Assembly: GCF_002105155.1 (NCBI RefSeq)
Contig: NW_019029012.1
Span: 186,001-250,000, forward strand
Length of the DNA: 64,000 bases
Direction of reading: 5' to 3'
Source of the DNA: Lobosporangium transversale
Taxonomy: Eukaryota
Shown: positions 5,835 to 64,000 of the stretch, piece after piece
Numbering within the stretch: the first letter of the stretch is position 1
Layout of the letters: each line of letters opens with the position of its first letter
Made by a program: the position numbers and the translations under genes
Notes under the pieces: generated by a model
Told to the model about the DNA's origin: nothing
What the model saw: only the letters and a program-made list of their open reading frames with translations
Databases searched by the model: none

Positions 5835-6803
5835 ATGAATATACTTACAAAAGCCTCGAAAGGGCTCATACCCGCCTCTCGACCCAATGTACTGCCGTTG
5901 GTAGCATTGACGACGTCAAAAACAGAAAAGACATTTACCTTTCATACCTCTGCTTCACAAGACAGTCGATCGTCTCATCATTCCTCCAAGAATCATTATG
6001 AACAACTTGGCTTGAGGAAGGACGCTACCAAACAGGAAATCAAATCTCAATTTTATAAGCTCTCCAAGCTCCACCACCCGGACAAAAACGACTCTGCAGA
6101 GTCTCGCAAGCAGTTCTTGTCAATCAATGAAGCCTATTCTGTCTTGGGGAACGAGCGTCAACGACGAGACTATGACCTCACTTTACTCGACGGATCTGGA
6201 TCCCTTTATTCCTCTTCTTCTTCCTCAGAAAGGGACACCCCCAATCGTGGAACGCTTAGGAGAACTCCATTCCGACATTCTGCTCACTCTGCAGCTGCAG
6301 CTGCGGCTGCAAGGGCCCATGCTGCAACTAGAGCCAAGTTTAATGATTTAAATCAACAGCAACACCATCATGGACCCGTACCACATTTTGATTCAAAATC
6401 TCATCAAGAGATGCACCATGAACAAGATATTCGACGAGAGGAACGAAGACAGGCTAGGGAACGTGCCAAGGCTGAACAAAAGAAGGCTGAAGGGTCAGCT
6501 GCTGGATCTGGAATATTTTTGAGAACCACACTAATACTCGTGGCCATCATAATGGGCTCGTCCTTATCCAAGGTCTTTGCAGATGAAATCGAACAACAGG
6601 ATAAAGAAGCTCAGTCAACTTTGCCACCATCATATTCTACTACGACTACGACTACCTCTGCAATTCAGTCTTCGGTTGGTCGTCGCTTGCAGCATTATGG
6701 CCATCAATCTGCTCCAAGGGCTTTTAACCAAAGAGAAAATGATGAGGATAATATTGAATCGCCTTTGAAATATTTGTCCTCGTCAACAATGTCTTCAAGT
6801 TGA
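5835..6803 (+). CDS. J-domain (DnaJ/Hsp40 type III) protein, probably mitochondrial and membrane-anchored
   Basis: Single ORF of 322 aa; NHYEQLGL...KLHHPDKN...FLSINEAYSVLGN...RRDYD J-domain with HPD; basic Ser/Thr-rich N-terminus; hydrophobic segment IFLRTTLILVAIIMGSSL. Confidence 0.9.
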   Translation: MNILTKASKGLIPASRPNVLPLVALTTSKTEKTFTFHTSASQDSRSSHHSSKNHYEQLGLRKDATKQEIKSQFYKLSKLHHPDKNDSAESRKQFLSINEAYSVLGNERQRRDYDLTLLDGSGSLYSSSSSSERDTPNRGTLRRTPFRHSAHSAAAAAAARAHAATRAKFNDLNQQQHHHGPVPHFDSKSHQEMHHEQDIRREERRQARERAKAEQKKAEGSAAGSGIFLRTTLILVAIIMGSSLSKVFADEIEQQDKEAQSTLPPSYSTTTTTTSAIQSSVGRRLQHYGHQSAPRAFNQRENDEDNIESPLKYLSSSTMSSS

Positions 6804-26021: not shown

Positions 26022-26338
26022 CCTTGTTATCCTTTGGTGCTTCCCTTGTTATCCTTTGGTGCTTCCCTTGTTATCCTTTGGTGCTTCCCTTGTTATCCTT
26101 TGGTGCTTCCCTTGTTATCCTTTGGTGCTTCCCTTGTTATCCTTTGGTGCTTCCCTTGTTATCCTTTGGTGCTTCCCTTGTTATCCTTTGGTGCTTCCCT
26201 TGTTATCCTTTGGTGCTTCCCTTGTTATCCTTTGGTGCTTCCCTTGTTATCCTTTGGTGCTTCCCTTGTTATCCTTTGGTGCTTCCCTTGTTATCCTTTG
26301 GTGCTTCCCTTGTTATCCTTTGGTGCTTCCCTTGTTAT
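26022..26338 (+). repeat. 22-bp minisatellite (CCTTGTTATCCTTTGGTGCTTC) x14, inside ~2 kb of degenerate related pyrimidine-rich repeat
   Basis: 14 exact units from 26022 plus a partial unit; flanks (~25750-27450) contain diverged units such as cttgctatgctttgctggttcacttt. Confidence 0.95.
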
Positions 26339-27818
26339 TCTTTGCTAGTTCATTTCCTGTTATCTTTTGATGGTTGCTTTTTTGTTATCCTTTGGTGCTT
26401 CACTCTCTTGTTAGCCTTTGATGGTTCACTTCTTTTTTACGCTTCCATATTTTATCCTTCAATGCCTCACTTGGTTGCTACGCTTTCATTTCTTTCTTCC
26501 ATGCTTGGCTTTCCTGTTATGCTTTCATCTCTTTTTCGGTACTTCACTTTTGTTATCCTTTTCTATGTTATCCTGGGCGCATCTCTTTCGTGTTATGTTC
26601 TATTACGCTTTCCTTCATTGCTTCGCTTTCTTGTTATTTTTTCATTTGCTTTTCTCGACACTTCACCTTTTTACTATGCTATCCTTTGTTTTTCTTCCCT
26701 GCTTCACTTCCTTGTTATGCTTTCTTTCTTGCTGCTTCACTTCCTCATTTGTTTTCCTTGGCTCGTCACTTTTTAAATATACTTTCATGTACTTCTCTTC
26801 GACGCTTCACTTTCGAGTTATCCTTTCCTTTGTTTCCCTTCGATACTTCGCTTTCTTACGTTGTTTTCATTTGTTTTCTCCCTTTTCTTATTATAGCTTC
26901 CTTTTCTTATTATAACTTCCTTTGTTTCTCTTTGTGTGTGCGTGTATGTGTGTGTTTTGTTTTCCTTGTTATACTTTCGTTTGTTTCCCTTCTGTGCTTC
27001 TCTTTCTTATTATGCTTTCATTTGTGCTTCCATTTCTTTTTTGTTTTCTTTTTTTTTCTTTTCTTTTCTTCAGTGCTTCCCCTCCTTGCTATATCTTACA
27101 TTTGTTTCCCTTTTGCTTTTCTTTCTTATCATATTTTCATTTATAGGTGCCGACATTTCTTACATATATTTTTGTTTGTTCTTTTCCCTCGCTTTACTTC
27201 TTTGCTATGCTTCCGTTTGTTCTTTCTCGACTTTCCCTTCCCCTTTCTTTCTCTCTCTCTCTCTTTTTTTTTCTTATTTGCTTTCACTTACTCTTCCTAT
27301 GTGCTTCTCTTCCTTAGTTTATTTTCATTCGCTCTTTCTCGGTGTTCCTTTCTCTTTCTTATTTCTCTTTCTTTTGTTGGTTACTTGCCGCTTCTCTTCC
27401 TTACCTTACTTTCTCTTACCTTACTTTCTCTTACCTCTCGCTGCTTACCGCTCTTGGGGGTTATTTTGCCTTTGGTATAGTACGGAGACAAAAAGTATGT
27501 AGTTTAGTATAAAGTAGTGACGGCAAGAAAAGGCAACGCTCGTGTTTGAGCGAGAGTTGGTGATGACATAAAGAGGCACAGGGAGAGACAGAAGAAGTGT
27601 GTGCGTGTGTGCTTGTGTGTGAATGTATTTGACAAAGGACTGCGATCGAGACTTACTTTTCAAGAGGTGGGGGGGTGGAGAGGTGGAGAGATAAAGAGGT
27701 GGAGAAGTGAAGAGGTGAAGAGGTGAAGAGGTGAAGAGGTGAAGAGAAAGGAAGAGAAAAAAAAAGGAAAAAAAAAAGAAAGAGCGAGCTTAAAATGAGA
27801 GAAAAGCGTCATTCTCCC

Positions 27819-28800
27819 AATCTCACTCGTCGCCACCATTTCTCCTTATCTTTGTTGAAAGCGGACATAATTATCCGAATATAGGCGAAATGAAAGTGAT
27901 TGGACGCCATTTTGAAACAGCATGAAATTCAAAGAAAGGGTGGATGGAAAACTGTCGGCTTGGACAGCCCGGAAGCGATCCCGTTGCCTTTCATTGCGAC
28001 ATTTTTCGCATTTGTTGACGTAATAAGCGAAAGTGATACGACATTGAGAAGAACGAAGCAAAAAGCATCGAAGGTATTAAACTTAATGACTATGAGTAGA
28101 CACTACTCACACCACGACTTTTGACCCCAGACTTACACATCGTATGCTTTTTTTGCGATCGCATTTTCTTAAGGAACAAAAAAAAAATTGATAGAGAAAG
28201 ATGCATTAATTTTTCATGCATCTTTGGGTGTAGCCACACTTTTCATTACATCTCGCTCTTCTCTCTCTTTTATCGCTTCTAAAAGTATAATAGACAAGGA
28301 TCCAGGCTTGTCATAGACTCTAGTTCCTTCTAGTTTCTGATTGAAAGTAATACAGTGTGTTCAGGTCTGCTACAGTATCTGGTAGATGCTTTTCATGGAG
28401 CCCATCACCTTTCTGGCCCATGTCCCAAAGGTAAGCCTGCCTTATTTTTCGTTATGACCATCTTGTTGAGCGAGCAACAACAAGCAACACGTAAAAAGTA
28501 TGTAACGTGTGTGTCGAGGAAAATATTATATCCAAGCTCTGCAGGGCCTTCAGGGCCTTCAATACTTTTGATTCAACACCTTCATTACTATTGTATTTAA
28601 TTCTTCGCATTAAATTTATTTATCCCTCTTTCAATGCTTTCCCTACCTTCACGTACATTATTCCTTTTGCTTCATGTGACAATGTAATGACATCAACCGG
28701 AAGATGCTTTTGCTTTTAAAGCAACCGACTATTGCCATATTCGGATAATTATGTCCGCTTTCAACAAAGATAAGGAGAAATGGTGGCGACGAGTGAGATT
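27819..28800. repeat. Nested 64-bp perfect inverted repeat pair enclosing ~850 bp
   Basis: 27819-27882 (AATCTCACTCGTCGCC...CCGAATAT) is the exact reverse complement of 28737-28800; mirrored at 37492-37555 and 38410-38473. Confidence 0.9.
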
Positions 28801-29707
28801 ACCCAAGAAATCATGCATGGATATTCAGCGAATAAACAAGAATGCAAGAATAGCAAAATGGTGTCTGTTGGACAATGTAAACACTTTAAGGTTTGGTGGT
28901 AAATGTGGTGCAAACATTTTGATGATGACTGACATAAGGATTGGAGCTGTGTGTCACCAAGGAGTACCCACCATCCCGCCTAGTGCAGGTTGCCGGTTCA
29001 CACAGCAAGATAGTGCTTACTTTGAGTATTGCTCCATGGTGCTCCTCATTTATACTTGTGCAGGAGACAATAGAAAGGAAGTGCTTCTCAATATATATAT
29101 TGAAGCCTCTCTTCCAAAGCCAGTTGTTCATAACATAACAATAGGCACCAGAACCCCTCATTTTCGGAGCAGTATATTAATAAGTTCACCCTCCTATCAT
29201 CTAAGCAATGCCGCCTCTACTAAATTTTCAATTTTCGGAGACTGCATTTTAAAGCTTTTTTTTTTTTTTTTTTTTTTTGTGTGAATACTTTTTATTAAGA
29301 GATTGCTTGCTATCTAGCTATCTAGCTTACCTGGTTACTATCCTAAGCTACAAGAAGCCAGACTCTTAGCCACCTTGGAAAGCGCTTTTCTTTGTCACCA
29401 TCGAAAAGACTCTCCAAGATGTTGTCCGGAGCACACCACGTGGAGGTGGTCTGGCATATCGTGCTCCGTTGGTCAGGCCCCATGGCCTTGCAAACGCCCG
29501 CACACACACACATTTATTTACCCATCCCCATCTCCATTCCCATTCCCTTTCCCATTCTGGACCGAAGGGGCTCCGCCATCGCAAGGCTCGTTAAAGAACC
29601 AGCTCAGGCTCATGCCCGTTCGGACCTACCTTAGATATGCATTGGTTATTGCATCTTGGATGTGCATTGTTGCTATGTTAAAAAGTGCTTTGTATTGTGT
29701 TAGTAAG

Positions 29708-29738
<31 letters not shown>

Positions 29739-30004
29739 GGCTTTCTTATGTTTTTAATTGGCTTTTTTTTTTTCTTTTTTCTTTTTTTCTTTTTTTTCTT
29801 TTTTTCTTTTTTTCTTTTTTTCTTTTTTTTCTTTTTTCTTTTTTCTGATATGAGATCTTTTTTTTGCTTTTCTTTTTTTAGGCTTTTATTTAGTCTTTTT
29901 TTTTTGGGTTTTTTTTTTTCTTTGGTTAATTTTTTTTTAATTGTTTTTTTTCTTTGGGTTATTTTTTTTTTTCTTTGGTTTTTTTTGGTTTTTTTTTTTA
30001 TTTG

Positions 30005-30050
<46 letters not shown>

Positions 30051-31880
30051 GTTTCTTTTTTTCTTTGGTTTTTTTTTTTTTGAGGTATTTGATTCCGGAG
30101 GCGCTTGTTTTTGCCTGGATGGACTGTTCGACCTTTCTTTGGTTTAGTCCTTTTGCTGGTGGCGCTGAGCTTTCGTTACCAGTGCCTTCCAGACCACACG
30201 ATGAGAAGTGGCCTGGTCGCTATGATTTGGTGTTGTTCGTGAAGCCTTGGCCATCATACCCGAGATGGGATGGGCTGGCTATTTGGCCGCGGAGAAGGCC
30301 GTCGTTCGACTGCGGTAGACTATGAGGCCGTTTAGAGCGTGGCTGTTTAGAGCGTGGCCATCTGGAGCGTGGCCAGTTGAATACGGCTTTTCGTTGGAGT
30401 GCAGCCGTTCGAGTATGGGCGCCTGAGTGTGGCAGTCTGGCTGTGCGTTATGAAGCCCCAGTTGCTTTAGGCAGCTTCATGTCGTTGCAGTCTAATCGTG
30501 GAATGAAAAGAGAGACACAGGCAGAAAAAGAATAATCAGAACAAGGACAGTGAAGCACAGAGTGACAGTGTTGAGAACTTCAGTAAGAGTGATTGTTTAG
30601 GGAGTGTTGCTTACCTTTTGTCTTGGTTGAGGAGGCCGATGGTCGAGGAGACCGAGGAGAAAGAGAAGAGAAAAGAAGAGAAAAGAAGAAAAAAGAAGAG
30701 TCAAAATGGGTCCTTTTTATATTGGTTTCTTATTATTATTATTAACGTTCGCGCAAGAGGAGAAGGGCCGAGGAGTGATTGGTTTTCAAAAGCGCGCTGT
30801 ACTAAGTACCTTGCTTGCTGTACGCTCAAGAGCGACCAATAAAATATCAACAAAAAAAATTAAAAAATAAAAATTAATATACGTGTCTTTGATGTCATCT
30901 GTCATATTTCATATGATAAAGAAGAGACTCTCACGATTGAAAGTGGGAATAATGCTCTGTCCTCAAGACTCATAAGGAAAACCTGTCTATAAACAACCAG
31001 AGCATGAACTGTATTGCACTCGAGCTTGCTTACTCTTATTGATGAAGGAGATCATCTTCTTTATCCTCTTCTTCTATTTCCTTTCTTCACTCCTAACAAG
31101 AGATGGGATAGACTGTCGTTGGGCCTATACTTTGGCAGCTTGCCGTTTTTCCAGAGTGTGGTGGAAAATAACACATGGCATTCGTCAGAATACCTCTCCG
31201 CCTTTTTTTTTTTTTTTATTTTTTATTTTATTTTTTATTTTCATGCAATACAATGTAGAATACATTAAGATTTGAAGGTGAAACAAAGTATCAACATTTA
31301 TATATCGACCAGTAAAAGGCACACGATCGTATCGAGGAAATGACGTGTCGTATCTCTTTGGCTCTTTGAAAAGGAAAATAAGGAAAAGAAAAAAAGGAAA
31401 AATGTCTGTTTGAACAAAAACTGCCGCAGCACAGTTCCCACGACAATGCATCCTATTCTTTGTTAAGGATGAAGAGAAAGAATGGGAGAAGAGAGTCAAA
31501 TAGCAAACTGACCCTCTTACTCAGCATAACACTCAGCTGTCAAAGAAACGACGATATAAAAAGAAACAAAGACAAAGAGAAATAGAAGACAAGCAGTATT
31601 GCACGGCAAGTACGATCATAGATTTAACTATAGCAGCAATAGCGACTACCTCATCGTCAATTATTATGGTATCACACTCCGTTGCTACCTCAGGACCTGC
31701 CTCTCGTCATGCTACTGTCAAAAAGACCCAACCGAACCTAATCAGCAACAGTATTGGTGGCAATAACAGTGACGCCAAGGATGATGCCACTAAAGCCTTG
31801 ACAGTCTTTACTTCTGGATCAAGTGCCTTCCGTGCTAGAAATATTATGGAAAGCTATACCCAATGGTCCCAACGTCGTTA

Positions 31881-34781: not shown

Positions 34782-36241
34782 AGTTTGCTATTTGACTCTC
34801 TTCTCCCATTCTTTCTCTTCATCCTTAACAAAGAATAGGATGCATTGTCGTGGGAACTGTGCTGCGGCAGTTTTTGTTCAAACAGACATTTTTCCTTTTT
34901 TTCTTTTCCTTATTTTCCTTTTCAAAGAGCCAAAGAGATACGACACGTCATTTCCTCGATACGATCGTGTGCCTTTTACTGGTCGATATATAAATGTTGA
35001 TACTTTGTTTCACCTTCAAATCTTAATGTATTCTACATTGTATTGCATGAAAATAAAAAATAAAATAAAAAATAAAAAAAAAAAAAAAGGCGGAGAGGTA
35101 TTCTGACGAATGCCATGTGTTATTTTCCACCACACTCTGGAAAAACGGCAAGCTGCCAAAGTATAGGCCCAACGACAGTCTATCCCATCTCTTGTTAGGA
35201 GTGAAGAAAGGAAATAGAAGAAGAGGATAAAGAAGATGATCTCCTTCATCAATAAGAGTAAGCAAGCTCGAGTGCAATACAGTTCATGCTCTGGTTGTTT
35301 ATAGACAGGTTTTCCTTATGAGTCTTGAGGACAGAGCATTATTCCCACTTTCAATCGTGAGAGTCTCTTCTTTATCATATGAAATATGACAGATGACATC
35401 AAAGACACGTATATTAATTTTTATTTTTTAATTTTTTTTGTTGATATTTTATTGGTCGCTCTTGAGCGTACAGCAAGCAAGGTACTTAGTACAGCGCGCT
35501 TTTGAAAACCAATCACTCCTCGGCCCTTCTCCTCTTGCGCGAACGTTAATAATAATAATAAGAAACCAATATAAAAAGGACCCATTTTGACTCTTCTTTT
35601 TTCTTCTTTTCTCTTCTTTTCTCTTCTCTTTCTCCTCGGTCTCCTCGACCATCGGCCTCCTCAACCAAGACAAAAGGTAAGCAACACTCCCTAAACAATC
35701 ACTCTTACTGAAGTTCTCAACACTGTCACTCTGTGCTTCACTGTCCTTGTTCTGATTATTCTTTTTCTGCCTGTGTCTCTCTTTTCATTCCACGATTAGA
35801 CTGCAACGACATGAAGCTGCCTAAAGCAACTGGGGCTTCATAACGCACAGCCAGACTGCCACACTCAGGCGCCCATACTCGAACGGCTGCACTCCAACGA
35901 AAAGCCGTATTCAACTGGCCACGCTCCAGATGGCCACGCTCTAAACAGCCACGCTCTAAACGGCCTCATAGTCTACCGCAGTCGAACGACGGCCTTCTCC
36001 GCGGCCAAATAGCCAGCCCATCCCATCTCGGGTATGATGGCCAAGGCTTCACGAACAACACCAAATCATAGCGACCAGGCCACTTCTCATCGTGTGGTCT
36101 GGAAGGCACTGGTAACGAAAGCTCAGCGCCACCAGCAAAAGGACTAAACCAAAGAAAGGTCGAACAGTCCATCCAGGCAAAAACAAGCGCCTCCGGAATC
36201 AAATACCTCAAAAAAAAAAAAACCAAAGAAAAAAAGAAACC

Positions 36242-36272
<31 letters not shown>

Positions 36273-39200
36273 AAAGAAAAAAAAATAAACCCAAATAAAC
36301 CAAAAAAAACCAAAAAAAACCAAAGAAAAAAAAAATAACCCAAAGAAAAAAAACAATTAAAAAAAAATTAACCAAAGAAAAAAAAAACCCAAAAAAAAAA
36401 GACTAAATAAAAGCCTAAAAAAAGAAAAGCAAAAAAAAGATCTCATATCAGAAAAAAGAAAAAAGAAAAAAAGAAAAAAAGAAAAAAAGAAAAAAAGAAA
36501 AAAAGAAAAAAAGAAAAAAGAAAAAAAAAAAGCCAATTAAAAACATAAGAAAGCCAAAAAAAAAAAAAAAAAAAAAAAAAAAACCCTTACTAACACAATA
36601 CAAAGCACTTTTTAACATAGCAACAATGCACATCCAAGATGCAATAACCAATGCATATCTAAGGTAGGTCCGAACGGGCATGAGCCTGAGCTGGTTCTTT
36701 AACGAGCCTTGCGATGGCGGAGCCCCTTCGGTCCAGAATGGGAAAGGGAATGGGAATGGAGATGGGGATGGGTAAATAAATGTGTGTGTGTGCGGGCGTT
36801 TGCAAGGCCATGGGGCCTGACCAACGGAGCACGATATGCCAGACCACCTCCACGTGGTGTGCTCCGGACAACATCTTGGAGAGTCTTTTCGATGGTGACA
36901 AAGAAAAGCGCTTTCCAAGGTGGCTAAGAGTCTGGCTTCTTGTAGCTTAGGATAGTAACCAGGTAAGCTAGATAGCTAGATAGCAAGCAATCTCTTAATA
37001 AAAAGTATTCACACAAAAAAAAAAAAAAAAAAAAAAGCTTTAAAATGCAGTCTCCGAAAATTGAAAATTTAGTAGAGGCGGCATTGCTTAGATGATAGGA
37101 GGGTGAACTTATTAATATACTGCTCCGAAAATGAGGGGTTCTGGTGCCTATTGTTATGTTATGAACAACTGGCTTTGGAAGAGAGGCTTCAATATATATA
37201 TTGAGAAGCACTTCCTTTCTATTGTCTCCTGCACAAGTATAAATGAGGAGCACCATGGAGCAATACTCAAAGTAAGCACTATCTTGCTGTGTGAACCGGC
37301 AACCTGCACTAGGCGGGATGGTGGGTACTCCTTGGTGACACACAGCTCCAATCCTTATGTCAGTCATCATCAAAATGTTTGCACCACATTTACCACCAAA
37401 CCTTAAAGTGTTTACATTGTCCAACAGACACCATTTTGCTATTCTTGCATTCTTGTTTATTCGCTGAATATCCATGCATGATTTCTTGGGTAATCTCACT
37501 CGTCGCCACCATTTCTCCTTATCTTTGTTGAAAGCGGACATAATTATCCGAATATGGCAATAGTCGGTTGCTTTAAAAGCAAAAGCATCTTCCGGTTGAT
37601 GTCATTACATTGTCACATGAAGCAAAAGGAATAATGTACGTGAAGGTAGGGAAAGCATTGAAAGAGGGATAAATAAATTTAATGCGAAGAATTAAATACA
37701 ATAGTAATGAAGGTGTTGAATCAAAAGTATTGAAGGCCCTGAAGGCCCTGCAGAGCTTGGATATAATATTTTCCTCGACACACACGTTACATACTTTTTA
37801 CGTGTTGCTTGTTGTTGCTCGCTCAACAAGATGGTCATAACGAAAAATAAGGCAGGCTTACCTTTGGGACATGGGCCAGAAAGGTGATGGGCTCCATGAA
37901 AAGCATCTACCAGATACTGTAGCAGACCTGAACACACTGTATTACTTTCAATCAGAAACTAGAAGGAACTAGAGTCTATGACAAGCCTGGATCCTTGTCT
38001 ATTATACTTTTAGAAGCGATAAAAGAGAGAGAAGAGCGAGATGTAATGAAAAGTGTGGCTACACCCAAAGATGCATGAAAAATTAATGCATCTTTCTCTA
38101 TCAATTTTTTTTTTGTTCCTTAAGAAAATGCGATCGCAAAAAAAGCATACGATGTGTAAGTCTGGGGTCAAAAGTCGTGGTGTGAGTAGTGTCTACTCAT
38201 AGTCATTAAGTTTAATACCTTCGATGCTTTTTGCTTCGTTCTTCTCAATGTCGTATCACTTTCGCTTATTACGTCAACAAATGCGAAAAATGTCGCAATG
38301 AAAGGCAACGGGATCGCTTCCGGGCTGTCCAAGCCGACAGTTTTCCATCCACCCTTTCTTTGAATTTCATGCTGTTTCAAAATGGCGTCCAATCACTTTC
38401 ATTTCGCCTATATTCGGATAATTATGTCCGCTTTCAACAAAGATAAGGAGAAATGGTGGCGACGAGTGAGATTGGGAGAATGACGCTTTTCTCTCATTTT
38501 AAGCTCGCTCTTTCTTTTTTTTTTCCTTTTTTTTTCTCTTCCTTTCTCTTCACCTCTTCACCTCTTCACCTCTTCACCTCTTCACTTCTCCACCTCTTTA
38601 TCTCTCCACCTCTCCACCCCCCCACCTCTTGAAAAGTAAGTCTCGATCGCAGTCCTTTGTCAAATACATTCACACACAAGCACACACGCACACACTTCTT
38701 CTGTCTCTCCCTGTGCCTCTTTATGTCATCACCAACTCTCGCTCAAACACGAGCGTTGCCTTTTCTTGCCGTCACTACTTTATACTAAACTACATACTTT
38801 TTGTCTCCGTACTATACCAAAGGCAAAATAACCCCCAAGAGCGGTAAGCAGCGAGAGGTAAGAGAAAGTAAGGTAAGAGAAAGTAAGGTAAGGAAGAGAA
38901 GCGGCAAGTAACCAACAAAAGAAAGAGAAATAAGAAAGAGAAAGGAACACCGAGAAAGAGCGAATGAAAATAAACTAAGGAAGAGAAGCACATAGGAAGA
39001 GTAAGTGAAAGCAAATAAGAAAAAAAAAGAGAGAGAGAGAGAAAGAAAGGGGAAGGGAAAGTCGAGAAAGAACAAACGGAAGCATAGCAAAGAAGTAAAG
39101 CGAGGGAAAAGAACAAACAAAAATATATGTAAGAAATGTCGGCACCTATAAATGAAAATATGATAAGAAAGAAAAGCAAAAGGGAAACAAATGTAAGATA

Positions 39201-42200
39201 TAGCAAGGAGGGGAAGCACTGAAGAAAAGAAAAGAAAAAAAAAGAAAACAAAAAAGAAATGGAAGCACAAATGAAAGCATAATAAGAAAGAGAAGCACAG
39301 AAGGGAAACAAACGAAAGTATAACAAGGAAAACAAAACACACACATACACGCACACACAAAGAGAAACAAAGGAAGTTATAATAAGAAAAGGAAGCTATA
39401 ATAAGAAAAGGGAGAAAACAAATGAAAACAACGTAAGAAAGCGAAGTATCGAAGGGAAACAAAGGAAAGGATAACTCGAAAGTGAAGCGTCGAAGAGAAG
39501 TACATGAAAGTATATTTAAAAAGTGACGAGCCAAGGAAAACAAATGAGGAAGTGAAGCAGCAAGAAAGAAAGCATAACAAGGAAGTGAAGCAGGGAAGAA
39601 AAACAAAGGATAGCATAGTAAAAAGGTGAAGTGTCGAGAAAAGCAAATGAAAAAATAACAAGAAAGCGAAGCAATGAAGGAAAGCGTAATAGAACATAAC
39701 ACGAAAGAGATGCGCCCAGGATAACATAGAAAAGGATAACAAAAGTGAAGTACCGAAAAAGAGATGAAAGCATAACAGGAAAGCCAAGCATGGAAGAAAG
39801 AAATGAAAGCGTAGCAACCAAGTGAGGCATTGAAGGATAAAATATGGAAGCGTAAAAAAGAAGTGAACCATCAAAGGCTAACAAGAGAGTGAAGCACCAA
39901 AGGATAACAAAAAAGCAACCATCAAAAGATAACAGGAAATGAACTAGCAAAGAATAACAAGGGAAGCACCAAAGGATAACAAGGGAAGCACCAAAGGATA
40001 ACAAGGGAAGCACCAAAGGATAACAAGGGAAGCACCAAAGGATAACAAGGGAAGCACCAAAGGATAACAAGGGAAGCACCAAAGGATAACAAGGGAAGCA
40101 CCAAAGGATAACAAGGGAAGCACCAAAGGATAACAAGGGAAGCACCAAAGGATAACAAGGGAAGCACCAAAGGATAACAAGGGAAGCACCAAAGGATAAC
40201 AAGGGAAGCACCAAAGGATAACAAGGGAAGCACCAAAGGATAACAAGGAAATGAACCATCAAAGCGCAGCAAGAAAGTGAAGCAGCAAAGAATAATAAGA
40301 AAGGAAGTATCAAAGGATAGCAAGAAAGTGAACCAGCAAAGCATAGCAAGAAAGTGAACCAGCAAAGAATAACAAGGAAATGAACTAGCAAAGGATAGTA
40401 AGAAAGAGAACCAGCAAAGAAGAATGAGTCAAAAGATAACAAGCGTTAAAGAAATACAAACGAAAGCATGACAAGAAAGTAGAAAGAGAAACAAACAGAA
40501 GCATAGCAAAAAAGTGAAAGCAAACGAAAGTACAGGAAAGAAAGCGAATACCGGGAAGAAGTTTTTTTTTATATTTTTTTTCTTCAAGGGTAAGGGACTG
40601 TATAGGGTGGTAGGGTGGACAGTCTCAGGTAAGTAAGGTAAGTACCAAGAAGTCAATGAAAGTAAAAGTAAGAAAAGAAAACACCAAATAACGAAATGCA
40701 AAGAAAAAGTAAACGAAAGTACTAACGAAGAAGAGAAGTAGCAGAAAAGGCTAATAAAGTGCGGGACAGGACAAAAAAGCAAGAAAGACTACACCATTAG
40801 ATGTCCAACCCTGTATCAAAGGCGCGTCTCCAGAACATTTGGACACTCTCGCTTTCGAACACTCGTGAAAAAAAGGCAAGAGTATAATTATATCTGTGAA
40901 TGTGCTATTATTATTTGATTGATACCTGATTTACATGTTGCTTCATCGGAGCAATCCAGCACTTGCACTAATTATTCTTTCATATCTTTTTACTACTATT
41001 ATCTTTATAACAATGAGGATGTAAACAAGACCTGCCGCTACCGTATAATTAATGGTATCATAAATAGAGATTTAATGTTTCTACTATAATGAAGTATTCT
41101 TGATTCAGGCCTCATTTCTTGCAGACTTCTGCTTTTGGTGCCTGATGTTTGTTCTTGTTTTCTTTTATCTTGTGAACGAGGCATCTCTTAGATGAATATT
41201 ATTATACCCGAAGAGAGGCGTCTTTGATGAGAGGACATACAAGAAAGGCAAACCTTCGCCTACGACGGAGTTACAACACCACCAATCCCTCTTCTGCTGA
41301 AATGACTTTCCGCCCAGTGTGGTGTCATGAGAAAAAGTAAAATTTATTATTTTAGATATTTTATTGGCCATAATGGGTACGATCTTCATGCAGTTCTTTA
41401 ATAGAAGATTGTTGGCATATGCTCTTTTTCAATAGTTCTAGATTCTCGGCGCTGATTGTTTTTGAAATGGGGGCCTTTATGGCTCTAAGATCATCAAGTT
41501 GTCATCCCCATAACACGAATATTTTGACTTGGGCCTCCTCTTGTTCAACAGGAAATGTTCAGAATGTTAACACTCTTGTGGTATTGGAAGAGATGGCAAC
41601 TGTTATGGTTTGTGGAGTATCCATATAACAACGTTAAACTACTTGACATCCATGTTCAGGAAGTGTGAACGACAATAAAACATGTGAAACACGGAAACAA
41701 CCAAAGCTGTATTTTTCTCTTACAGGTGACCTACGAAATGAAGTGGTCCATTGTATGGTGAGCGTCTTCGTTTGAGGCAAGATATTCCTTGCAGTGATAT
41801 ACATGAGACTGATATAGTTTTTTACTATCATGTCAACATTTTCATTTCTCTATTTCAGAAAAAAAAGAAAACTCATGTTGGTATGCTTAGTACATCAGTA
41901 CGATACACTGTTTATATTCATTCTACCAGGCCCTGAATTGAGCGTATACATCACAAGTATCAAAGTAACTACTAGTACAGTATCTCAAAGTTTTTCAAAG
42001 AAGATATCGCTATTCAAGGATGTCTACTTGGCAGACCTGTTTTTCCATCTGAAGTTTTGTCTCACAGATGCTAGTCTTTGTTCGTTCTCGTCCTCTATTC
42101 TCCTGTCAATAATTATGAAGTCTTGTAGTTTTTCACAGCACATGATCATAGAAGAAAATATGGAGATGAGAATTCGATTTACAAACTCGATAGTATCACT

Positions 42201-42463
42201 ATCTAATGAAGAACAGGCTCATTACAACCTGGGGCTTCATACGGCCCCCCGCAAAGAAAGCGGAAAGAGCGGAGCGCTGAACATTGCTGTCTTTGGACCT
42301 TGACTTTTTTGCTCAATCCTTTTTAGCTGACCAAGTTGAATAATATGACGACTTAGACTTATTATCCGAAAGCCGGGACCATATATATCCCCTCCCCCCT
42401 TTTCTCTCTCATTCTTGCTTTTCTTTCTTCATGTACTGGCTCACTATCAAGAAGATACGGATC
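34782..42463. repeat. Right arm of ~7.7-kb near-perfect inverted duplication
   Basis: Reverse complement of 23807-31509; differs mainly in homopolymer/low-complexity tracts and in having 13 rather than 14 copies of the 22-bp unit. Confidence 0.97.
39954..40248 (-). repeat. 22-bp minisatellite x13 (mirror of 26022-26338)
   Basis: GAAGCACCAAAGGATAACAAGG repeated from 39963 to 40248 (286 bp = 13 units). Confidence 0.95.
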
Positions 42464-42643
42464 CACTTACCAGCATCCGAAACTCTAAAAGGATATCTGT
42501 AATAAGGTACAGGCTTGTACTTAGTCATCGTTTTCTATACCATGCTCTGATGGAGTGCTACAATTCTTCTGATATTGGAAATGGCAAGAGGAGAAGAGGA
42601 GCGTCTTTATATTATTATTATTATTTCTATTTTATTATTAGAC

Positions 42644-55285: not shown

Positions 55286-55879
55286 CTTCCTCAGTTTCAC
55301 GTTTGTTTCTTTGAATCATTCATGTAAGACATGCAAACACGCCTGCAACTCATCAGAAAATATATTCACCACTAACAAACAATCCTTCAAGGCTCTTCCT
55401 CTTTCAGGAACATGGCCTTTATGGTCTGTGCAGTTCTATTGAACATTATAGACTTTGGAGCTCTATTCTGAAATGTTTGATGGCGAAATCAAGAGATCAA
55501 GAACTGCTTTTATTATTGTTCCCAGGCGGGGGCCTTTTATTAAAGATCCGTCATGATCAGATGCTCTGACCTTATTAATTAAATGGACGTGCTAAGCTTC
55601 AGTACGTAAAACCTAGTGACTGACAATGATATCTCTCATCATCCCGTCTTTTTCGTTCTACAAGTTATTAACGAGGCAAATAACGATCTCGAATTAACAT
55701 AAAAAGATCAACAAACCGCTTACGCATGTATTTCTTTCTATAAAAGTGGCCTGGAATAGACTAACGCCAAACTGCTTAAAAATACCTGCCATGGCGCCTT
55801 ACCTGTTTATAAATGCTATGCTGAATACCTACTGTCTAATGCTGGACGGATATGGAATGAATCCCCAAGTGTGCGAGTC

Positions 55880-56019
55880 GCTGGGCAAGTCGAATAACAT
55901 GACGACTTAAGCTTATTATCCGAGAGCCAGGACCATATATCTCCTCTTTTCTCTCTTTCTTCTTTTTCTTTCTTCACGTCCTGGCTCAAGAAGATGCAGC
56001 TCCACTTGGTAGCGGAGCA
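55880..56019 (+). repeat. Diverged third copy of the outer end of the large inverted-repeat arms
   Basis: gctgggcaagtcgaataacatgacgacttaagcttattatccgagagccaggaccatatat...cttcacgtcctggctcaagaagatgcagctccacttggtagcggagc aligns with 42326-42468 and with the reverse complement of 23790-23944. Confidence 0.85.
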
Positions 56020-57007
56020 GATTTTATTCACTTTGCTTTGTTTCACTTCTTTGGCAATAAAAGATTTCACACGTATATGGTCCTGGCTCGATGGATAATA
56101 GCCGATAATTGGCAAACAGAGTAAGAGCCAATTAAGTCTAACCAATGCATGTTTAATTATTTAACTTATTACTCGCTATTAACGACGACAATAGCTCTTC
56201 ACCTAGCATCACCTCAGCGAATGGAGGGAGGTATTCTTAGGCCTCCTCGGTATATGCTCGATATCCACAATCCCGATATGAACTGTCTCTCAAAGAAAGG
56301 TATAATATCTTACTTAATCATGTCAACATACCAAGCAATTTTATGTTAAGGTCAACTTATCTATATGCCTAGTTCATCCCTTTTAGTCTTATCATCATTG
56401 AAAGCAATATCGTCCAAATCTTTTCATTATTGACTCCTTTTAGCAAAAGTAGTCCTGATTGACCCGACCTTTGTATGCACGTGTTCAACCTCAAAAAGAA
56501 TACTCTGGGGGTGATCTTTTCAAGAGAGCTTCTAGGAAAGGTTGATTGCCTACAATTGGGTCGTCGAGTCCCAGAAGCGTGATTTGTCGCATCACCATCT
56601 CCTCATAATCCTTGATGACAGGGACAAAGCCTCGAACAGCAGACGATATTGACTCTATTGTGTCTGCAGAGATCCCTGATCGACACGGTGTCCTGCTAGC
56701 ATACGATACTGTGACATCCCAACATGACACATGGACCATGTAGGGTTCATAATTCTCGGATACCATACATAGTCGAAAGGAGATACAGTAAAAATTACCC
56801 ACGCCCAATCCTGGAAAACACCGCACGGAGTGAAGACGGCTACTCCAACTGTCATCGACGTAACAATCCTGAATGTCCCTTCGTAAACTCAAGAGGCAAC
56901 ACTGTCAATAACACCTGGGACGAGGATACCAATTGTTACGTACCGAGGCTTGGGAGTGCACCTCAGGAGCACCTCCGTTTTTATACATAAGGTCAGAAAA
57001 TTATGGT

Positions 57008-57218
57008 CTACTGAATGGTCTACGAAGGACGACCTATTCACATTGTCATGGGTACCATGGACGTATGTCCCACTCACACTACCCTTTTGACTCAAGAAGT
57101 AGATGCAGATCAGATTTGCAGGGCAGAGGGATCTTTTATTTAGTTACTCTCTTTATTTCTCGTCGGATTTTCAATGAAGAAAGGTGACACACATACGCCC
57201 ATGGCACCGTAGACAATG
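57008..57218 (+). repeat. Dispersed repeat or gene-fragment copy B (homologous to 33094-33250)
   Basis: Encodes MVYEGRPIHIVMGTMDVCPTHTTLLTQE; shares the downstream ATGG(C/T)ACCGTAGACAATG. Confidence 0.85.
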
Positions 57219-57478
57219 TGACGGTCATGGCGGGTCCTTAATAAAAAGCTCCCGCCTGGCAACAATAATAAAAACAACTTTTGATTTCCTTGACTTGCAC
57301 CGACGTAGAAAACATCTCACCAACGATCCAAGAAACAATCCTATAATATTCCTGACCGTTGTGGTTCTGTTAATGGTGCCAATGAAAATGATGAAGAATT
57401 GCAAAGCCAGTTAAACAGTGGAGAAGAGAACATTATCAGATGATTTGCATGACGACTTGATATTTTTGAAGAATTAAT

Positions 57479-57589
57479 CACTCTCCTGAGACCTCGGAGG
57501 GTCCAAGTATTTTTGAGACAGAAACTTTCGCTGCCTGCTTCACTACTTACAAATTTTTTGTGGGTGTGCTGGCACCCAAATACTTGTGT
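57479..57589 (-). ncRNA. Candidate Fanzor omegaRNA scaffold / structured element 3' end
   Basis: Immediately after the Fanzor-like stop codon: 9-bp stem 57578-57586/57504-57512, inner GGGTG/CACCC hairpin (57562-57577), GAAA-capped hairpin (~57518-57538) and terminal CTCC-GAG..CTC-GGAG hairpin (57483-57499). Function is inferred only. Confidence 0.4.
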
Positions 57590-60370
57590 CTAGCGTCGTG
57601 CGCGCTTTGCAGCCGGAGCAGGCGACTCTTCCGTGGGCTTGTACTTTGCAGGCCTCTCTTGCCTCCCAATTTGAGCAAGGCCGATTCTTGCGATGTTTTC
57701 CGCCCCTACTGAAGAATACCTTACATGTCCGGCAATGTTTAGAGTGAGGGTACACCGTCTCTAAAAAGCTATCGCAGAGGGGTCGGGGACAGCGGGCGCT
57801 GGTGTAAAATTCATGCGCCCCTACAGCGAAGTGTCCTCGTGCTTTGACCTAAGCGTTTCAAATGACAGTCGTTCATTAGCAAGGGTTCTATGGCTTTCCA
57901 GCTTTTCTTACTTTTTTTAAAAAAAGCCATACCTTTGTGACAAGGTGCCTCGTTATAGCAGTGTGCTTGCTGGGAACTCCTTTACTACTTTCAAAGGACC
58001 CTAGGCCGACGACAAGCACTCCTTTTTCCCCGAGCATCTTCAACGCTCACTGTACCGCGTAGTCGAACGTAGCTCGTTGGCCTTTCGTAGGTCCCATTTT
58101 TTTTTCAGGTGCCATCTGGACTCGTAGAACTCTTGAAGCACATCCAAATTCTTTGATCCTATCTGTGTCTGGGACTCCTCGTTCATCCATTGAAAGTACT
58201 CATTGTACGTATCCCTTCCAAACACAGGGATGATACACATACCCGGGTGACCAGGGGGACGTAGGAAAGTCTGAGTATTTTTTCACTTTTTTGTTCTCCC
58301 GCAAAAAAAGCTCAATGTCGCTCATATCTTCGTTTGTTTTCTCGACATCAAACTAGAAAAAAAAAAAAAAAAAAAAAAAAAAGAGTCTGAATAAAGAGCA
58401 TTTGATTGCAGAATATGCATGAAAATACCTTACACAAGCTATACCATTGCGTTCCTGTAGTGCTGACTTAATGATGTCTGTACTTGGCCCATTAGTAGCT
58501 CTGACGCTCTTGGAAATGAGATCTTTTTGGGATCAAAGCCTTGCACGTCCCCCAATGTGATGTCTATTTCCTTTATTGGGGAAAGTTCAGCGGTGGCCTT
58601 GAAATGTTCATAAGCGAGGAGATAATGGGGCGTTTCTACCGCCTTTCCTTGTTTCTTTGCCCTCGCGTAAGCTGAATTGGGGCCACCTTGACCACTCAAA
58701 AGAAGGGTGGCGAGACGGAAGGAATAATCATTGCTATCCAAGACCTCGTCCAGTGCCTTTTTCCTCGACTTTGCTGCCCCTGGTAACCGCATGATCCTCT
58801 CAATGTCCAAGGCAATCGCCCAGTATGCACGTCGGCGTAGTCGGTTGAGGACAACAACTGCCCCTCGGATCTGGCTTGCAATACTATCCCTTTCATCTGC
58901 GTCCAGTCCGCCTTTCCTTGCCATGGAGGCCTTAAGGGACCCAATTGTTAAGGGCTTGATAGGGTGCTTACTGCTGTAGCTGTGATCAACCTTCGTAGCA
59001 TCCTTCAAGTTCTTAATTGGTGCACCTTCTTTTTTAGCCCTGTGGGGCTTCTTGCCTTTGTGCTTCCGCTTTTGTTTTTTCTGTTGCTTCTTTTTTACCT
59101 TTTTCCGACGTGGTGGATGCCGGCCTATCGTGCTGACGGCAGTTACTGATATCAACTGTGCGCCCATCCAATATGCTCGCCTTGTCAGAAAAGATGGGCC
59201 GGAACTGGTTCCTATGTGACCCTTCCGCTATATATAATGATGGTGCGCCTTTACATTATCCAAGAAAGGGACTAACGATTAGTATTGGGGACGTATGGTT
59301 TCAAGGCCAAAACTATAGATTGAGCCTTCTTACGTTCTGCGGCGCTGCGCTCGCCTTTGCTGAGCCATTCTATGGCGAAGATCCTTTCCATTGAGTAGAC
59401 GCTGCTTGAAGTTATCGAACTCACTGTTCAATGGTAATGCTTGGGCCGACGTTTGATGGCCGGAAGTAAAAACACGGAGAGCTACTCTGAAACGGCCTTC
59501 TTCAGAGGCTGCGTTCCTTCCCAACACCTTACTAGCTTCCCTTAGGTAGTCCCGAAGCACTTTATTGTAGTTCTCGTTCCACGCAACGTTTCGAATTAAT
59601 CGAAGATTATTAACCGGGCCTAACGTCTCGAGGTTCCTTGAGTAGTCATTGCCTGCGATGGCACAGAATAACACCAGATGTGCGTGTGATGACAGTCTTA
59701 GTGCTTGGATAACGTTGTCTACGTCGTAAACCCCAAACTTCCGTCTACGGTGCGGAAGGGGTCGCACTAGGAAGCAGACTCGTTCGTACGCAAAAAAATC
59801 AGAGTCTTGGGATATCACGATCCTATCATTCTCCTCATTATGGCGCCCTATGCATGGGTCCGCTTCATATGCACACAGACAGACATCGAAGACAGAACTA
59901 AGGCCTGTTGCCAGCTGATCGTTGTCCTGGACGCTCAGGGTGTGGACTTCTCGAAGACCCCTCTGGATGCGCCTCATGACTTGAGGACGAGTCCATACCC
60001 CACTCCAAGAATTTCTCTCGAAGGTGCTCATATCGTTCTCCGAAGCATCCATATATTTTTCTCTTATGGCTTGCTGTTCTGTCCTTGCTTTTTCTTTCTC
60101 AGTACAAGGTTCTCCACCAATATGTATAGTCAGGTTGTCCGTTATGAAAAGATCCTTTATCACGAGAGCCAGGGACCTTCCTACATCGATGATGGATTCG
60201 TTTTTCATCTTTGCATGGACGACTCTGTGGAGGATGTCGTAATAGAACGTACCGAGGAGATCTACATGAACAGAATGGTCAGGATTTGCCGCCAAGAAAG
60301 TGCCCACGTCAGTTTCCGAAGGTAAAACCCCGCGATCCGCAACCAGTTTGAAGAAGGACTTCAGCCCCAT
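57590..60370 (-). pseudogene. Decayed XPG/FEN1-like PIN nuclease fused to a Fanzor/TnpB-like RuvC-zinc-finger C-terminus (spliced gene)
   Basis: N-terminus MGLKSFFK, HVDLLGTFY, YEADPCI, ISQDSDFFAY, AIAGNDY (PIN + H3TH); K-rich linker and helical region (58439-59167); C-terminus FYESRWHLKKKWDLRKA..FDYAV..LKMLG..VLVVGLGSF..GVPSKH..|VKARGHFAVGAHEFYTSARCPRPLC..KHCRTCKVFF/VGAENIARI..RPAKYKP. GT-AG intron 57849-57932; several frameshifts and stops. Confidence 0.75.
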
Positions 60371-61138
60371 GGTCAATATCTAAGCGAAAGAGAAAGAAAA
60401 AAGGAAAAATGGTGGTGATGAAAAGAAATGAAAAAGAAAAAAAAAAGAGCGACAAAGGTATAAAAGGATGAGCTTTTTTATGGTTTAAAGATCCAAAGTG
60501 GCCCTTGCTTTGTGCTTTGTGAGGAATTTAATGAATAAAAGAAGATTTATAATTTTGAACAGGGGTAATAAATGCATTGACAGATATGACTCGGTGATTA
60601 TATCCTTGTCAAAGGTAACAACTAAAGAAAAAAAAGTCTTTTTATCAGAGAATGGCTTCATATGATGCTCTTTGTTCCAACAGCCCCAGTACTATTGCGT
60701 TAAAGCAGAGATATTCATTGACTCTCAGATTCCGGCATCACTGGCGGAGATAGGGGTGATGTAGTTGCATGCGCTTATTGCTTGGAGTAAAAGCTATCTA
60801 AGCACCCTTTCTTACTGGACGATGCCTTGTTAATGGTGATATTGCGCAGCGCCTTGTGGATGGAGGGAGAGCAGAAGCGAGAGTGGTGGTTTTTGGTGGT
60901 CGTTTGGTGTGTGTATGTGTGAATTTGATAGATGATACCAATCACCAAAATATATGCATCTAGAAATACAGAAGCGAGATTGATACCGACGCGTTTGATC
61001 CTTTCCTAGGGATTGTTATAACCATGGGATGATTGTGGAGTGGCCACCAAAATAAAGTTTGTTTGGAGGCACCAATGGAAAACGCTTGTGTTTTGAACAA
61101 AAAAAGACGCCGCGATGTAAAATGTGTTTATACATGTA

Positions 61139-62474
61139 CAGTCACCTGAAATAAAGTTTGGACAAAATGGATTTTCTTGATTTTTTTTTGAACAACCTGG
61201 ACAAACAGCTCATATGCAACATACATAAAGACTTCATCAATACACATGAAATTTTACATGCTCACTAAAGAGGTCAATACTGTTATTTATTGGGGTTTTG
61301 AAGACGGCATTGTTAGAGTAGCAAAAGTGCCATGTAGGTTCAATAGTGAGTGTTCCTACCATCGACCCCATTCACTTCTTCCAGCCTTTCGGGCATGGTA
61401 GCGACAAGGCTGGCCAGCCTCTCTTGCGGTAAATTATTCCACTCTTCGATAAGAGCCCGTGTGAGAGTGGGAAGATCTCTTGGCCCTTTAGCGCGCCTAT
61501 CGAGTGCATCCGCAAGAAGTGACCATACATGTTCAATAGGGTTCAAATCTGGGGAGCATGAAGGCCAGTCTGGAATCCTCGGGATGCTGTTTTTTTCGCG
61601 CCATTCTTTTGCAATCTTACAAGTATGAACTGGAGCATTATCCTCCATAAGTATGCCATCCCCTACCTCAGCCATAAATCTGGCTAGCTCGCCTTGATAT
61701 ACATCTTCCACGAAACACCGTTCATCTTTACGACCTCTTTCAAATACAACCAACCGAGACTTTCTGGTTGCTGTGAACGCCCCCCAGACCATCAGAGTTG
61801 TTCTACCACTTTTGAAAGTGGGTGCGAGGCAATCATGATCGTACTTTTCCTCTACTTTACGCCAAACTCTTATTTGACGAAAATGCTCACCAACTTCAAA
61901 TGATGATTCGTCAGTCCAAACTACCCGATTCCAGTCTTCCATGGACCAACTCATATATTTTTTGACAAACTGCAGCCTCCTTTTTATATGTCCTTCTTTT
62001 AAGAATGGTTTTTTTACTGCAATCCGGCTGAAAATACCCAGTGAATGCAATGCCTTCGCAACTGTCCTCTCGCAAACTTTGTTCGGCAATTGGTTAGTGA
62101 TATCATTAAGAGTACACCTTCTATTCTGCTTAGTATGGCGAACGATGCTCCTGAGGTCCCGTTCACTTAGTACTTTGGGCCGTCCTGGGATCGGAGTGCA
62201 AGCAGTGGTGCCTCTTTCTTGGTACACCCTGATAATATTAATAACAGAGGTTCGGGGTACACCGCGTTGCAATGCGATTTCCGCAGCCTTCATGCCCGCG
62301 AGGTGCATTCCAACGATGATACCTTTATTCTCAATGTCTAAGTGTCTCGCCATGGTGGTTTACTCAAGCTGTTTGTATATGAAAAACAGGAAGGAAAGAG
62401 ATTGAAGGAAACGCTTCCCTACGTAACTATTTCAATATTTTATTTTTTTGTCCAATCTTTGTTTCAGGTGACTG
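61139..62474 (-). mobile_element. Tc1/mariner DNA transposon, full length (1336 bp)
   Basis: 29-bp TIRs CAGTCACCTGAAATAAAGTTTGGACAAAA vs CAGTCACCTGAAACAAAGATTGGACAAAA (2 mismatches), TA on both sides (61137-61138, 62475-62476), single transposase ORF. Confidence 0.95.
61340..62353 (-). CDS. Tc1-family transposase, 337 aa, DD35E
   Basis: HTH-GRPKVLS-HTH; KKPFL; VVWTDES; LMVWGAF; LMEDNAPVH; WPSCSPDLNPIEHVW; uninterrupted ORF. Confidence 0.95.
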   Translation of the reverse strand: MARHLDIENKGIIVGMHLAGMKAAEIALQRGVPRTSVINIIRVYQERGTTACTPIPGRPKVLSERDLRSIVRHTKQNRRCTLNDITNQLPNKVCERTVAKALHSLGIFSRIAVKKPFLKEGHIKRRLQFVKKYMSWSMEDWNRVVWTDESSFEVGEHFRQIRVWRKVEEKYDHDCLAPTFKSGRTTLMVWGAFTATRKSRLVVFERGRKDERCFVEDVYQGELARFMAEVGDGILMEDNAPVHTCKIAKEWREKNSIPRIPDWPSCSPDLNPIEHVWSLLADALDRRAKGPRDLPTLTRALIEEWNNLPQERLASLVATMPERLEEVNGVDGRNTHY

Positions 62475-62476
62475 TA

Positions 62477-62595
62477 CAGTAGGCTCGTTCCCATCCCTCT
62501 TCACTTTATAAAGGTGACAGGAAATTCCATTTCCTTTTTGAGTCACCTAAAGTGAAGGGGCTGGGAACGAGCCTAGGATGGGAACGAGCCTACAG
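62477..62595. mobile_element. ~120-bp foldback / miniature inverted-repeat element abutting the Tc1 TIR
   Basis: GTAGGCTCGTTCCCATCC (62479-62496) pairs with GGATGGGAACGAGCCTAC (62576-62593); inner arms CTTCACTTT/AAAGTGAAG, AGGTGAC/GTCACCT and AGGAAAT/ATTTCCT; starts TA|CAGT. Confidence 0.7.
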
Positions 62596-63482
62596 AAATC
62601 AAAGAGATGCTTCAGCTGCTTATTCGTGCACACAGTGATTGACGAACAAAAAAGGAAACAGGATTTGCGAAACAATAAAAAAAAAGTCCACAGCAACTGT
62701 TTGCTCACATACATTTTTTTCACCGTTGTGTCTGTATCTCTTCTAAGCTTTCTGTCTGGCCGTTTAACACAAGGAACCCTCAGAAAGAGAAATACCTCGC
62801 ATGATTGGTGCCAGGTCTGAAAACAACAATAATACAATGCTGTACGTGGAAGATAGGGTCTAGAAACTATACCATTGATCACAACTGCTACTCATGCTCT
62901 CTTGCCAAGGACTTTAACAGGCATACCAACCCCTTCTTCCTTGCTCTCATAACCGCTTACATCCTTTCGATGCATTCTTTCGCCGTTTATGTCCACTACA
63001 TCTGAACCACACACAATTCACCACTCACTCCAACAGAGATATTTGTATCACCTTGGGTATGATATGTTGCTGTGGTTCCCTCTGGTTTCACTAGGCCCAA
63101 CAAACTCTATAAGCTGTTTACCAAGCCAGATATATCAAGGGAATGCAAGAAGACGAGGAAGCGAACGATGTGACAAATCAAGTCTTGCCGAGCTGTACAA
63201 GAAAAGATCAAGTTAGTCAAGCTCCATGGTGCGGAAGAATGAAACCACTCAGATTGCCCTCCTTTCAAGTCGATACTACGGCAGCGAATATTATCGCTGT
63301 TATATTAGATCAGTCAATAAATAAACGATACAATGGACTCCCAAGGGGATGCTAGTGTCATGCGAAAGTTTTCATAAGTTTTTTATTTGCACAAATAAAG
63401 AAGCCAGGATAGCTCCATGACAATTTAGTTTTCGGTCATTTATTTCGACATCGAAATAAAATTTCAAGACAATGCCCATGGA

Positions 63483-63791
63483 TTGCTGGATTTTAAGCCC
63501 ATTTATAATGGCAAATTTGCCCTTGTGACGGACGAAGGGATAAGCGTTTTCGCTCAAAAGAATGGTCCTGTACATATATATGTTGACAACCAAACTCTCT
63601 ACCATTGTCTCTTAAAAGGTTCCTCATCAAACAGCTATGTTAATAAGACCTTAATTAAGATATGGCGCCTACTTGAGCGATTGCAACGTCGTGTTGTTCG
63701 AACTTGGATTCCCTATGAGGATAACCCTGTGGATTATTTTTCGAGGGTGCAGTACTGTGGGTTTCATCCCAAGGAGGTAAACATCGGGTAG
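63483..63791 (+). pseudogene. RNase H fragment of a DIRS/Ngaro-type (tyrosine recombinase) retroelement
   Basis: VHIYVDNQTLYHCLLKGSSSNSYVNKTLIKIWRLL...VVRTWIPYEDNPVDYFSR matches the DIRS RNase H pattern DN...KGxS...W(I/V)P..xN.xD.(L/F)SR; upstream RT not intact. Confidence 0.7.
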
Positions 63792-64000
63792 TATACTTTC
63801 AAATCAAGAGCAGTGGCAATGAGAAATACATCATGCCTATCGGGCCGGCTGTCATCTTATATCATCAATTCTCAGTACTTAGTACTGTAGTTAGCAACAC
63901 TTATTAAAGATCTCTCTATTTTGCGTTGCTACGCTTCATCATTAAGGTTAATCCAATTCACGTCCTAATTATCATTTATTCGAAATCATTTACGTAATGT

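Follow-up and report, generated by a model that had tools for sequence, protein, structure and literature searches.

The hairpin-rich segment of 111 nt that directly follows the stop codon TAG (57592-57590, minus strand) of a Fanzor-like frame is best explained as a two-part junction in a dead copy of a mobile element, where 45 nt of element tail meet 66 nt of flank, while the intact tail of other copies is the putative omegaRNA scaffold; we put the probability of this whole explanation at about 70%. The segment (57479..57589, minus strand) is numbered, as are all positions here, along the window, i.e., the whole stretch of 64,000 nt that was analyzed (Table 1). The explanation builds on the edge of the multi-copy sequence at 57545, the absence of the family's terminal piece from the window copy, its broken gene, and the intact catalytic motifs of its relatives.

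The copies were read via the assembled contigs of four among eight public runs from the same organism; X1, X2, and X4 are DNA, and X5, which is RNA by guess only, has no cover over 57471-57540, a gap without bearing on expression. In 7-nt bins of run X2, the depth was 108 in all ten bins of 57471-57540, rose to 1,970 in 57541-57547 and reached 6,557-6,772 in 57548-57568. X1, X2, and X4 were flat at single-contig depth over 57323-57510 (8.2, 108, and 6.2, respectively), and the 3' part of the gene lay at about 15 to 180 times the single-contig depth in most bins of these runs, with the exception of a few X4 bins near 57934-58027 that were only 4-6 times higher. Loose ends before 57545 were found in at least five contigs of X1, at least five of X4, at least four of X2, and at least one of X5. 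The multi-copy edge is 57545 and not 57479, and the step in depth makes 57479-57544, i.e., 66 of the 111 nt, single-copy flank and not element. An end of the element near 57479, as had been proposed, is ruled out by the flat depth there, with neither a depth change nor a loose end among those listed and with the edge found instead at 57545. The guide that was to start at 57478 fails with it, since 57479-57544 is already single-copy flank. The sharp drop in conservation that the earlier note expected does occur, at 57545 (three DNA runs, with 7-nt resolution in X2) rather than 57479, and its idea of an element end just behind the stop codon stands, as the multi-copy depth stops 45 nt past it.

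A 60-nt contig identical to 57593-57652 has a depth of 2,820 versus 108, i.e., 26 times the single-contig depth, which suggests tens of close copies, summed contig depth not being the same as copy number. Since X1, X2, and X4 share one 349-nt contig without any difference from the window, they probably represent one strain and are not independent, and one of them is possibly the window's own source. A better conservation of the tail 57545-57604 compared with the coding tail was considered and rejected, since differences near contig ends or at <1% of the depth seem to be unlisted.

Table 1. Features of the element copy and its flank, in window positions.
Feature	Position	Strand	Basis
True edge of the window copy	57544..57545	.	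Depth step and loose ends
Single-copy flank with GAAA hairpin, second arm of 9-bp stem and last hairpin	57479..57544	-	Flat single-contig depth
Retained non-coding family tail, 45 nt; likely 5' part of omegaRNA scaffold	57545..57589	-	Multi-copy depth; ORZ22893.1
9-bp enclosing stem, first arm	57586-57578	-	Letters checked
9-bp enclosing stem, second arm	57512-57504	-	Letters checked
First inner hairpin, arms	57577-57573 / 57566-57562	-	Letters checked
GAAA hairpin (GNRA-capped)	57538-57518	-	Letters checked
Last (terminal) hairpin	57499-57483	-	Letters checked
6-bp hairpin TGGGTG/CACCCA	57561..57578	-	Only helix of the earlier note wholly within element sequence
Intron-bearing broken gene, PIN (FEN1/XPG-like) head and Fanzor1 nuclease	57590..60373	-	tblastn of full-length relatives, in order, several frames
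First exon, FEN1/EXO1-like PIN head and helix-turn-helix part, frame open	59334..60373	-	Pfam, family profile
Large internal deletion site	58232..58233	-	tblastn jump from residue 682 to 998
In-frame stop private to the window copy	58047..58049	-	Translation; all depth at 58049 in four runs is another letter
Frameshift	~58079	-	One extra letter behind 58079 in other copies
84-nt GT..AG intron	57849..57932	-	Splice signals; one X5 contig skips exactly these 84 nt
RuvC-II glutamate six residues before C4 zinc finger	57705..57848	-	Translation; Pfam Cas12f1-like_TNB E 0.046

Past 57545, the other copies carry ~21-23 further common letters that end in CCTG (gene sense) and are mostly followed by TA. 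From the stop codon to CCTG the family tail measures about 66 nt, and the window copy is without the last ~21 nt of it. Among those listed, the loose ends past 57545 in X1, X2, X4, and X5 agree at 0.77-0.8 over the 30 letters, a further contig bears the same terminal piece with three changes, and one X5 contig departs directly after CCTG, without TA. The published protein ORZ22893.1, which stems from another copy, reads in a shifted frame through the same first 45 nt (by-eye comparison). The tail itself is often rearranged in the family. One other copy has 59 nt within 57567-57627 replaced by 26 different letters, and another is without 57545-57577 yet keeps the terminal piece.

Judged by its position and size, the tail of ~66 nt from stop codon to CCTG is a likely omegaRNA scaffold. 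It is common to the copies right behind the stop codon, with 45 nt at multi-copy depth and ~21 letters shared in the loose ends of four runs. In the parts of the cited papers covered here, the Fanzors tested there obtain their RNA from the element's 3' terminus (PMC10432273, PMC10711439), the omegaRNA of SpuFz1 comprises a 75-nt conserved scaffold behind the stop codon plus 14-15 variable bases (PMC10432273), and Fanzor1 scaffolds include the terminal repeat and the target-site duplication (PMC10711439). The likeness to SpuFz1/Spu-1 of Spizellomyces punctatus (PMC3627910, PMC10432273; PDB 9ceu, 8gkh) extends from the Fanzor1 signatures to the many copies, many of them broken, the TA at the end, and the short conserved tail behind the stop codon, 75 nt in Spu-1 versus ~66 nt here. 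Unlike SpuFz1, the family has a protein of ~1,050-1,190 aa with a FEN1/EXO1-like head and a gene with introns; unlike for Spu-1, an inverted left end was not found within the 64-kb window, and the omegaRNA of the family is a candidate only. PpFz1 of Parasitella parasitica is likewise a fungal Fz1, and its omegaRNA is very short, 75 nt in all (PMC11423790); the extra domain of PpFz1 is a RuvC insertion that binds cyclophilin, whereas that of the family is a second nuclease.

Folding of the tail gave no signal above shuffles, be it for the 45-nt piece, for pieces reaching into the gene, or for two-strand folds. Alone, 57545-57589 forms one irregular hairpin (z -1.78; 18/300 shuffles), and longer pieces that extend into the gene stay at chance level (z 0.05 to 1.09). 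When the terminal ~21-nt piece was supplied as a second strand, the hairpin could become longer (z -1.18 to 0.54), and a shuffled terminal piece performs as well in 118-277 of 300 trials. Of the few tail variants seen, one preserves a base pair (G-U to A-U) and several disrupt a pair (by eye). The Rfam search over 56500-61500 found no family at the cut-off and two weak matches far below it. These folding and Rfam results would suit a tail that is a mere transposon end or a 3' untranslated region, with the omegaRNA lying elsewhere, mostly in the reading frame, or not existing at all. We consider this improbable, as the RNA of the Fanzors tested in the covered parts of these papers originates at the element's 3' terminus (PMC10432273, PMC10711439), the tail matches the scaffolds of SpuFz1 and PpFz1 in place and about in size, and the relatives retain the full RuvC triad.

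The end at CCTG|TA is not proven, because seven consensus letters are visible beyond TA, of which four agree between runs and three disagree. This 4/7 agreement and the length of the loose ends (median 122-227 nt, with 30 letters of each visible) could also mean that the element continues well past CCTG-TA in intact copies, so that a longer piece was lost here and the true end and the scaffold are located further out. Such a continuation is quite unlikely in our judgement: between runs, the first 21-23 letters are almost wholly the same, unlike the outer seven, the contig mentioned above departs right after CCTG, and the overall agreement of 0.77-0.8 is arithmetically what ~23 common and 7 mixed letters would give.

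Concerning the 111-nt segment as a whole, the letters were checked, and the motifs, stems, and hairpins described earlier are all in place on the minus strand, in agreement with the MFE fold of -31.3 kcal/mol, which contains the enclosing stem and both inner hairpins. In the comparison with shuffles that had been suggested, the fold does score better (z -2.53, equaled by 3/200 shuffles; z -2.38 and 2/300 in a repeat run), but nine of 256 background windows of 111 nt match it with z <= -2.5 (3.5%; drawn from both strands of the 64 kb, with 30 shuffles per window), and the fold beats chance only modestly. The 9-bp stem spanning the junction is somewhat rare among control pieces, with a perfect inverted match of >=9 bp to 57545-57589 in 45 of the 3,858 control 66-nt pieces of the window (1.2%), and the flank portion 57479-57544 gave a z of -0.70 when folded alone. 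Since the segment is a two-part junction in a dead copy without the last ~21 nt, the fold of its 111 nt probably arises from fortuitous pairing between the two parts. Of the scaffold that the earlier note drew from 57589 to 57479, the first hairpin lies in the copy-shared part, but two of the three hairpins and one stem arm lie in the flank. A scaffold built in this way would be ~60% host flank, which corrects the earlier drawing, and the missing terminal ~21 nt together with the dead protein mean that the window copy is no source of a working scaffold as drawn. That 57589-57479 is a scaffold all the same, with its guide from 57478, as an end confined to this copy or to a rare subfamily, has the z of -2.5, the 9-bp enclosing stem (1.2% of controls), and the GNRA-capped hairpin in its favor, but it is highly improbable and already largely refuted by the single-copy state of 57479-57544, the lack of a step or a listed loose end at 57479, the 3.5% of background windows that fold equally well, and the death of the copy, in which little could select a new scaffold in cis.

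Judged by sequence, the window gene is a dead Fanzor1 copy of a Lobosporangium-like fungus. The motifs in its relatives and the contig depth bear out its initial attribution to the Fanzor1 of a multi-copy element, and translation together with tblastn of full-length relatives confirms that the TAG closes the Fanzor-like reading frame. The deletion at 58232/58233 comprises ~315 codons (683-997 in the numbering of P0010) with the WED domain including its TNG motif and RuvC-I; loose ends from other copies flank 58232 to its left and right. Another 11 nt, present in other copies, are missing near 57710, and the RuvC-III aspartate has gone with them. The first exon matches Pfam XPG_I with E 0.021, below the cut-off. 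The intron-skipping X5 contig comes from a copy that is ~90% alike (among the joints listed), which hints at transcription and splicing of some family member, provided that the guess of X5 being RNA is right.

All eight matches of the first exon are named from Lobosporangium transversale (Mortierellaceae) and are 62-99% identical, and P0006 and P0008 from the same species supply the middle part that the window copy lost. The search with P0008 returned six longer proteins, of which five are named from Mortierella alpina and four have a length of 1,053-1,186 aa; P0009-P0013, i.e., five of these six matches, keep DPG, HE(Y)(Y/F)TS..C, and DRD and thus an intact RuvC triad. Full-length relatives align with the window gene end to end, the intact ones having 1,050-1,190 aa. 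In the covered parts of the literature, the Fanzor1 signature consists of the RuvC-I aspartate within DPG and the TDG motif in the WED domain (PMC10711439), and Fanzors have the RuvC-II glutamate six residues before the zinc finger (PMC13565253) and a C4 zinc finger followed by RD with the RuvC-III aspartate (PMC3627910). The DPG aspartate is present in P0006, P0008, and P0009-P0013, its region being deleted in the window copy; the glutamate occurs at the same distance from the finger in the window copy and P0009-P0013; and the C4 finger followed by RD with the aspartate is found in P0008-P0013, the window copy having kept the finger and lost the aspartate. The WED motif takes the form TNG in 12 of the 14 relatives with >=1,000 aa and the form TDG in one (loose pattern), and TNG forms a column in the alignment.

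By its motifs, the N-terminal head of the intact relatives is a nuclease of the FEN1/EXO1/XPG type. Five PIN motifs occur in P0010, P0012, and P0013, and four or five in 12 of the 14 relatives of >=1,000 aa (loose patterns). Searched against PDB, the family profile matched FEN-family chains only (EXO1 and Rad2 with E 0.002, FEN1 with 0.09), and the search by single sequence gave no match there. P0153 passes the Pfam cut-offs for both XPG_I and Cas12f1-like_TNB, which holds for one of the ten proteins scanned. Like the 5' nucleases FEN1, EXO1, and XPG, the full-length relatives have retained the PIN-core acidic motifs along with the helix-turn-helix part; unlike in these nucleases, the head is joined to a Fanzor and borne by a mobile element, and its activity is predicted. 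The AlphaFold model of P0010 is poor (pLDDT 44); SpuFz1 is the top fold match of this low-confidence model, with EXO1/FEN1 next in the ranking, and we treat these fold matches as a lead only. The HMMER search with P0010 returned 832 clusters at E <= 0.001, and fragments predominate among the best 150 of the 832. Longer homologues of the PIN head alone were not found among 2,695 candidates. Scans for related loci yielded one locus in metagenomes, a chance match in an unrelated bacterial-type gene, none in two scans of viral contigs, and one short match in prokaryote genomes, from a Massilia MAG; no real related locus came from any of these scans.

The family is not new as a Fanzor, and a published table already has it under Fz1. 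In the parts covered, Supplementary Table 1 of PMC10432273 files two L. transversale proteins as FZ1, namely XP_021884711.1 and ORZ22893.1, the latter being a C-terminal fragment of the window gene's family. The M. alpina FZ1 entries KAF9956896.1, KAF9574988.1, KAF9576320.1, and KAF9947650.1 of the same table (1,140-1,314 aa) show PIN-like motifs at their start by visual inspection, which covered 18 (the first) of the 43 M. alpina rows. No end or omegaRNA of the family was found in the parts of PMC10432273 covered. From its main text, the words XPG, flap, fusion, fused, and Mortierell- are absent, and 'PIN' occurs there only within 'pink'. Word searches of the main texts of PMC10432273, PMC10711439, PMC10530073, PMC13565253, and PMC10691335, with terms that varied by paper, found no Fanzor-FEN1/XPG/PIN fusion, and the search of two files from the PMC10530073 supplement gave no match. 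The fusion is remarked in no literature searched; Repbase, subscription papers, bioRxiv supplements, and the supplements of PMC10711439 lie outside this scope and may describe such elements or their ends.

We hypothesize that in intact copies the ~66 nt from stop codon to CCTG and the following TA would form the omegaRNA scaffold, whose start possibly lies inside the reading frame. By analogy with known Fanzors, a read-through transcript of an intact copy could be trimmed to the scaffold and ~15 nt of flank serving as the guide, the Fanzor would cut the empty allele beside a predicted motif ending in TA, and the element would be copied into this site when the break is repaired with the filled allele as template. 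Trimming or resection of the 5' ends at the cut may be the task of the FEN1/EXO1-like head, a step with less support than those of the Fanzor, and new sites might be reached via a Tc1/mariner-type transposase in trans, which is a first guess from the TA. Taken to its full extent, this would be a Mortierellaceae mobile family that combines a spliced RNA-guided Fanzor1 with an active FEN1/EXO1-like 5' nuclease and an end scaffold of ~66-68 nt, and whose joint cutting and processing bring the element to tens of sites with no need for a transposase encoded by the element itself. We offer this fuller picture tentatively and regard it as rather doubtful.

The analysis locates the right end for a FEN1-like/Fanzor1 family that has tens of copies in one genome, and this opens the omegaRNA and the target motif to testing, together with the function of the second nuclease. 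If it proves true, the presence of a 5' nuclease within a natural Fanzor would be relevant to the spread of RNA-guided elements in eukaryotes, and also to editors in which a cutter is coupled to an exonuclease.

The window contains further elements in the neighborhood of the gene. A Tc1/mariner element at 61135-62478, which has inverted ends of 33 bp (94%) and whose DDE frame of 337 aa is open, sits 760 bp upstream of the Fanzor start codon; it was rejected as the left end of the Fanzor element because it has its own inverted-repeat pair. An inverted copy of the right end was not found in the window, where the best candidate has 14/23 letters in 60374-64000 and two chance-level matches occur across the 64 kb. 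A palindromic, MITE-like piece of ~100 bp (62480-62575) adjoins the end of the Tc1/mariner element, and the 102-aa frame at 63483-63791 (plus strand) has a by-eye resemblance to the RNase H part of a retroelement. On the other side, a decayed element at 55486-57296 has inverted ends of 64-72 bp (~82%), and its end near 57225-57296 is multi-copy in the public runs. An inverted duplication (23802-31509 and 34782-42468) spans 7.7 kb at 99.5% identity with a 3.3-kb spacer and may represent an inverted-repeat element of very recent origin, a structure resembling a centromere or telomere, or an artefact of the assembly; each of its arms contains a 22-nt tandem array with 14-15 near-perfect copies (26022-26344 and 39948-40248).
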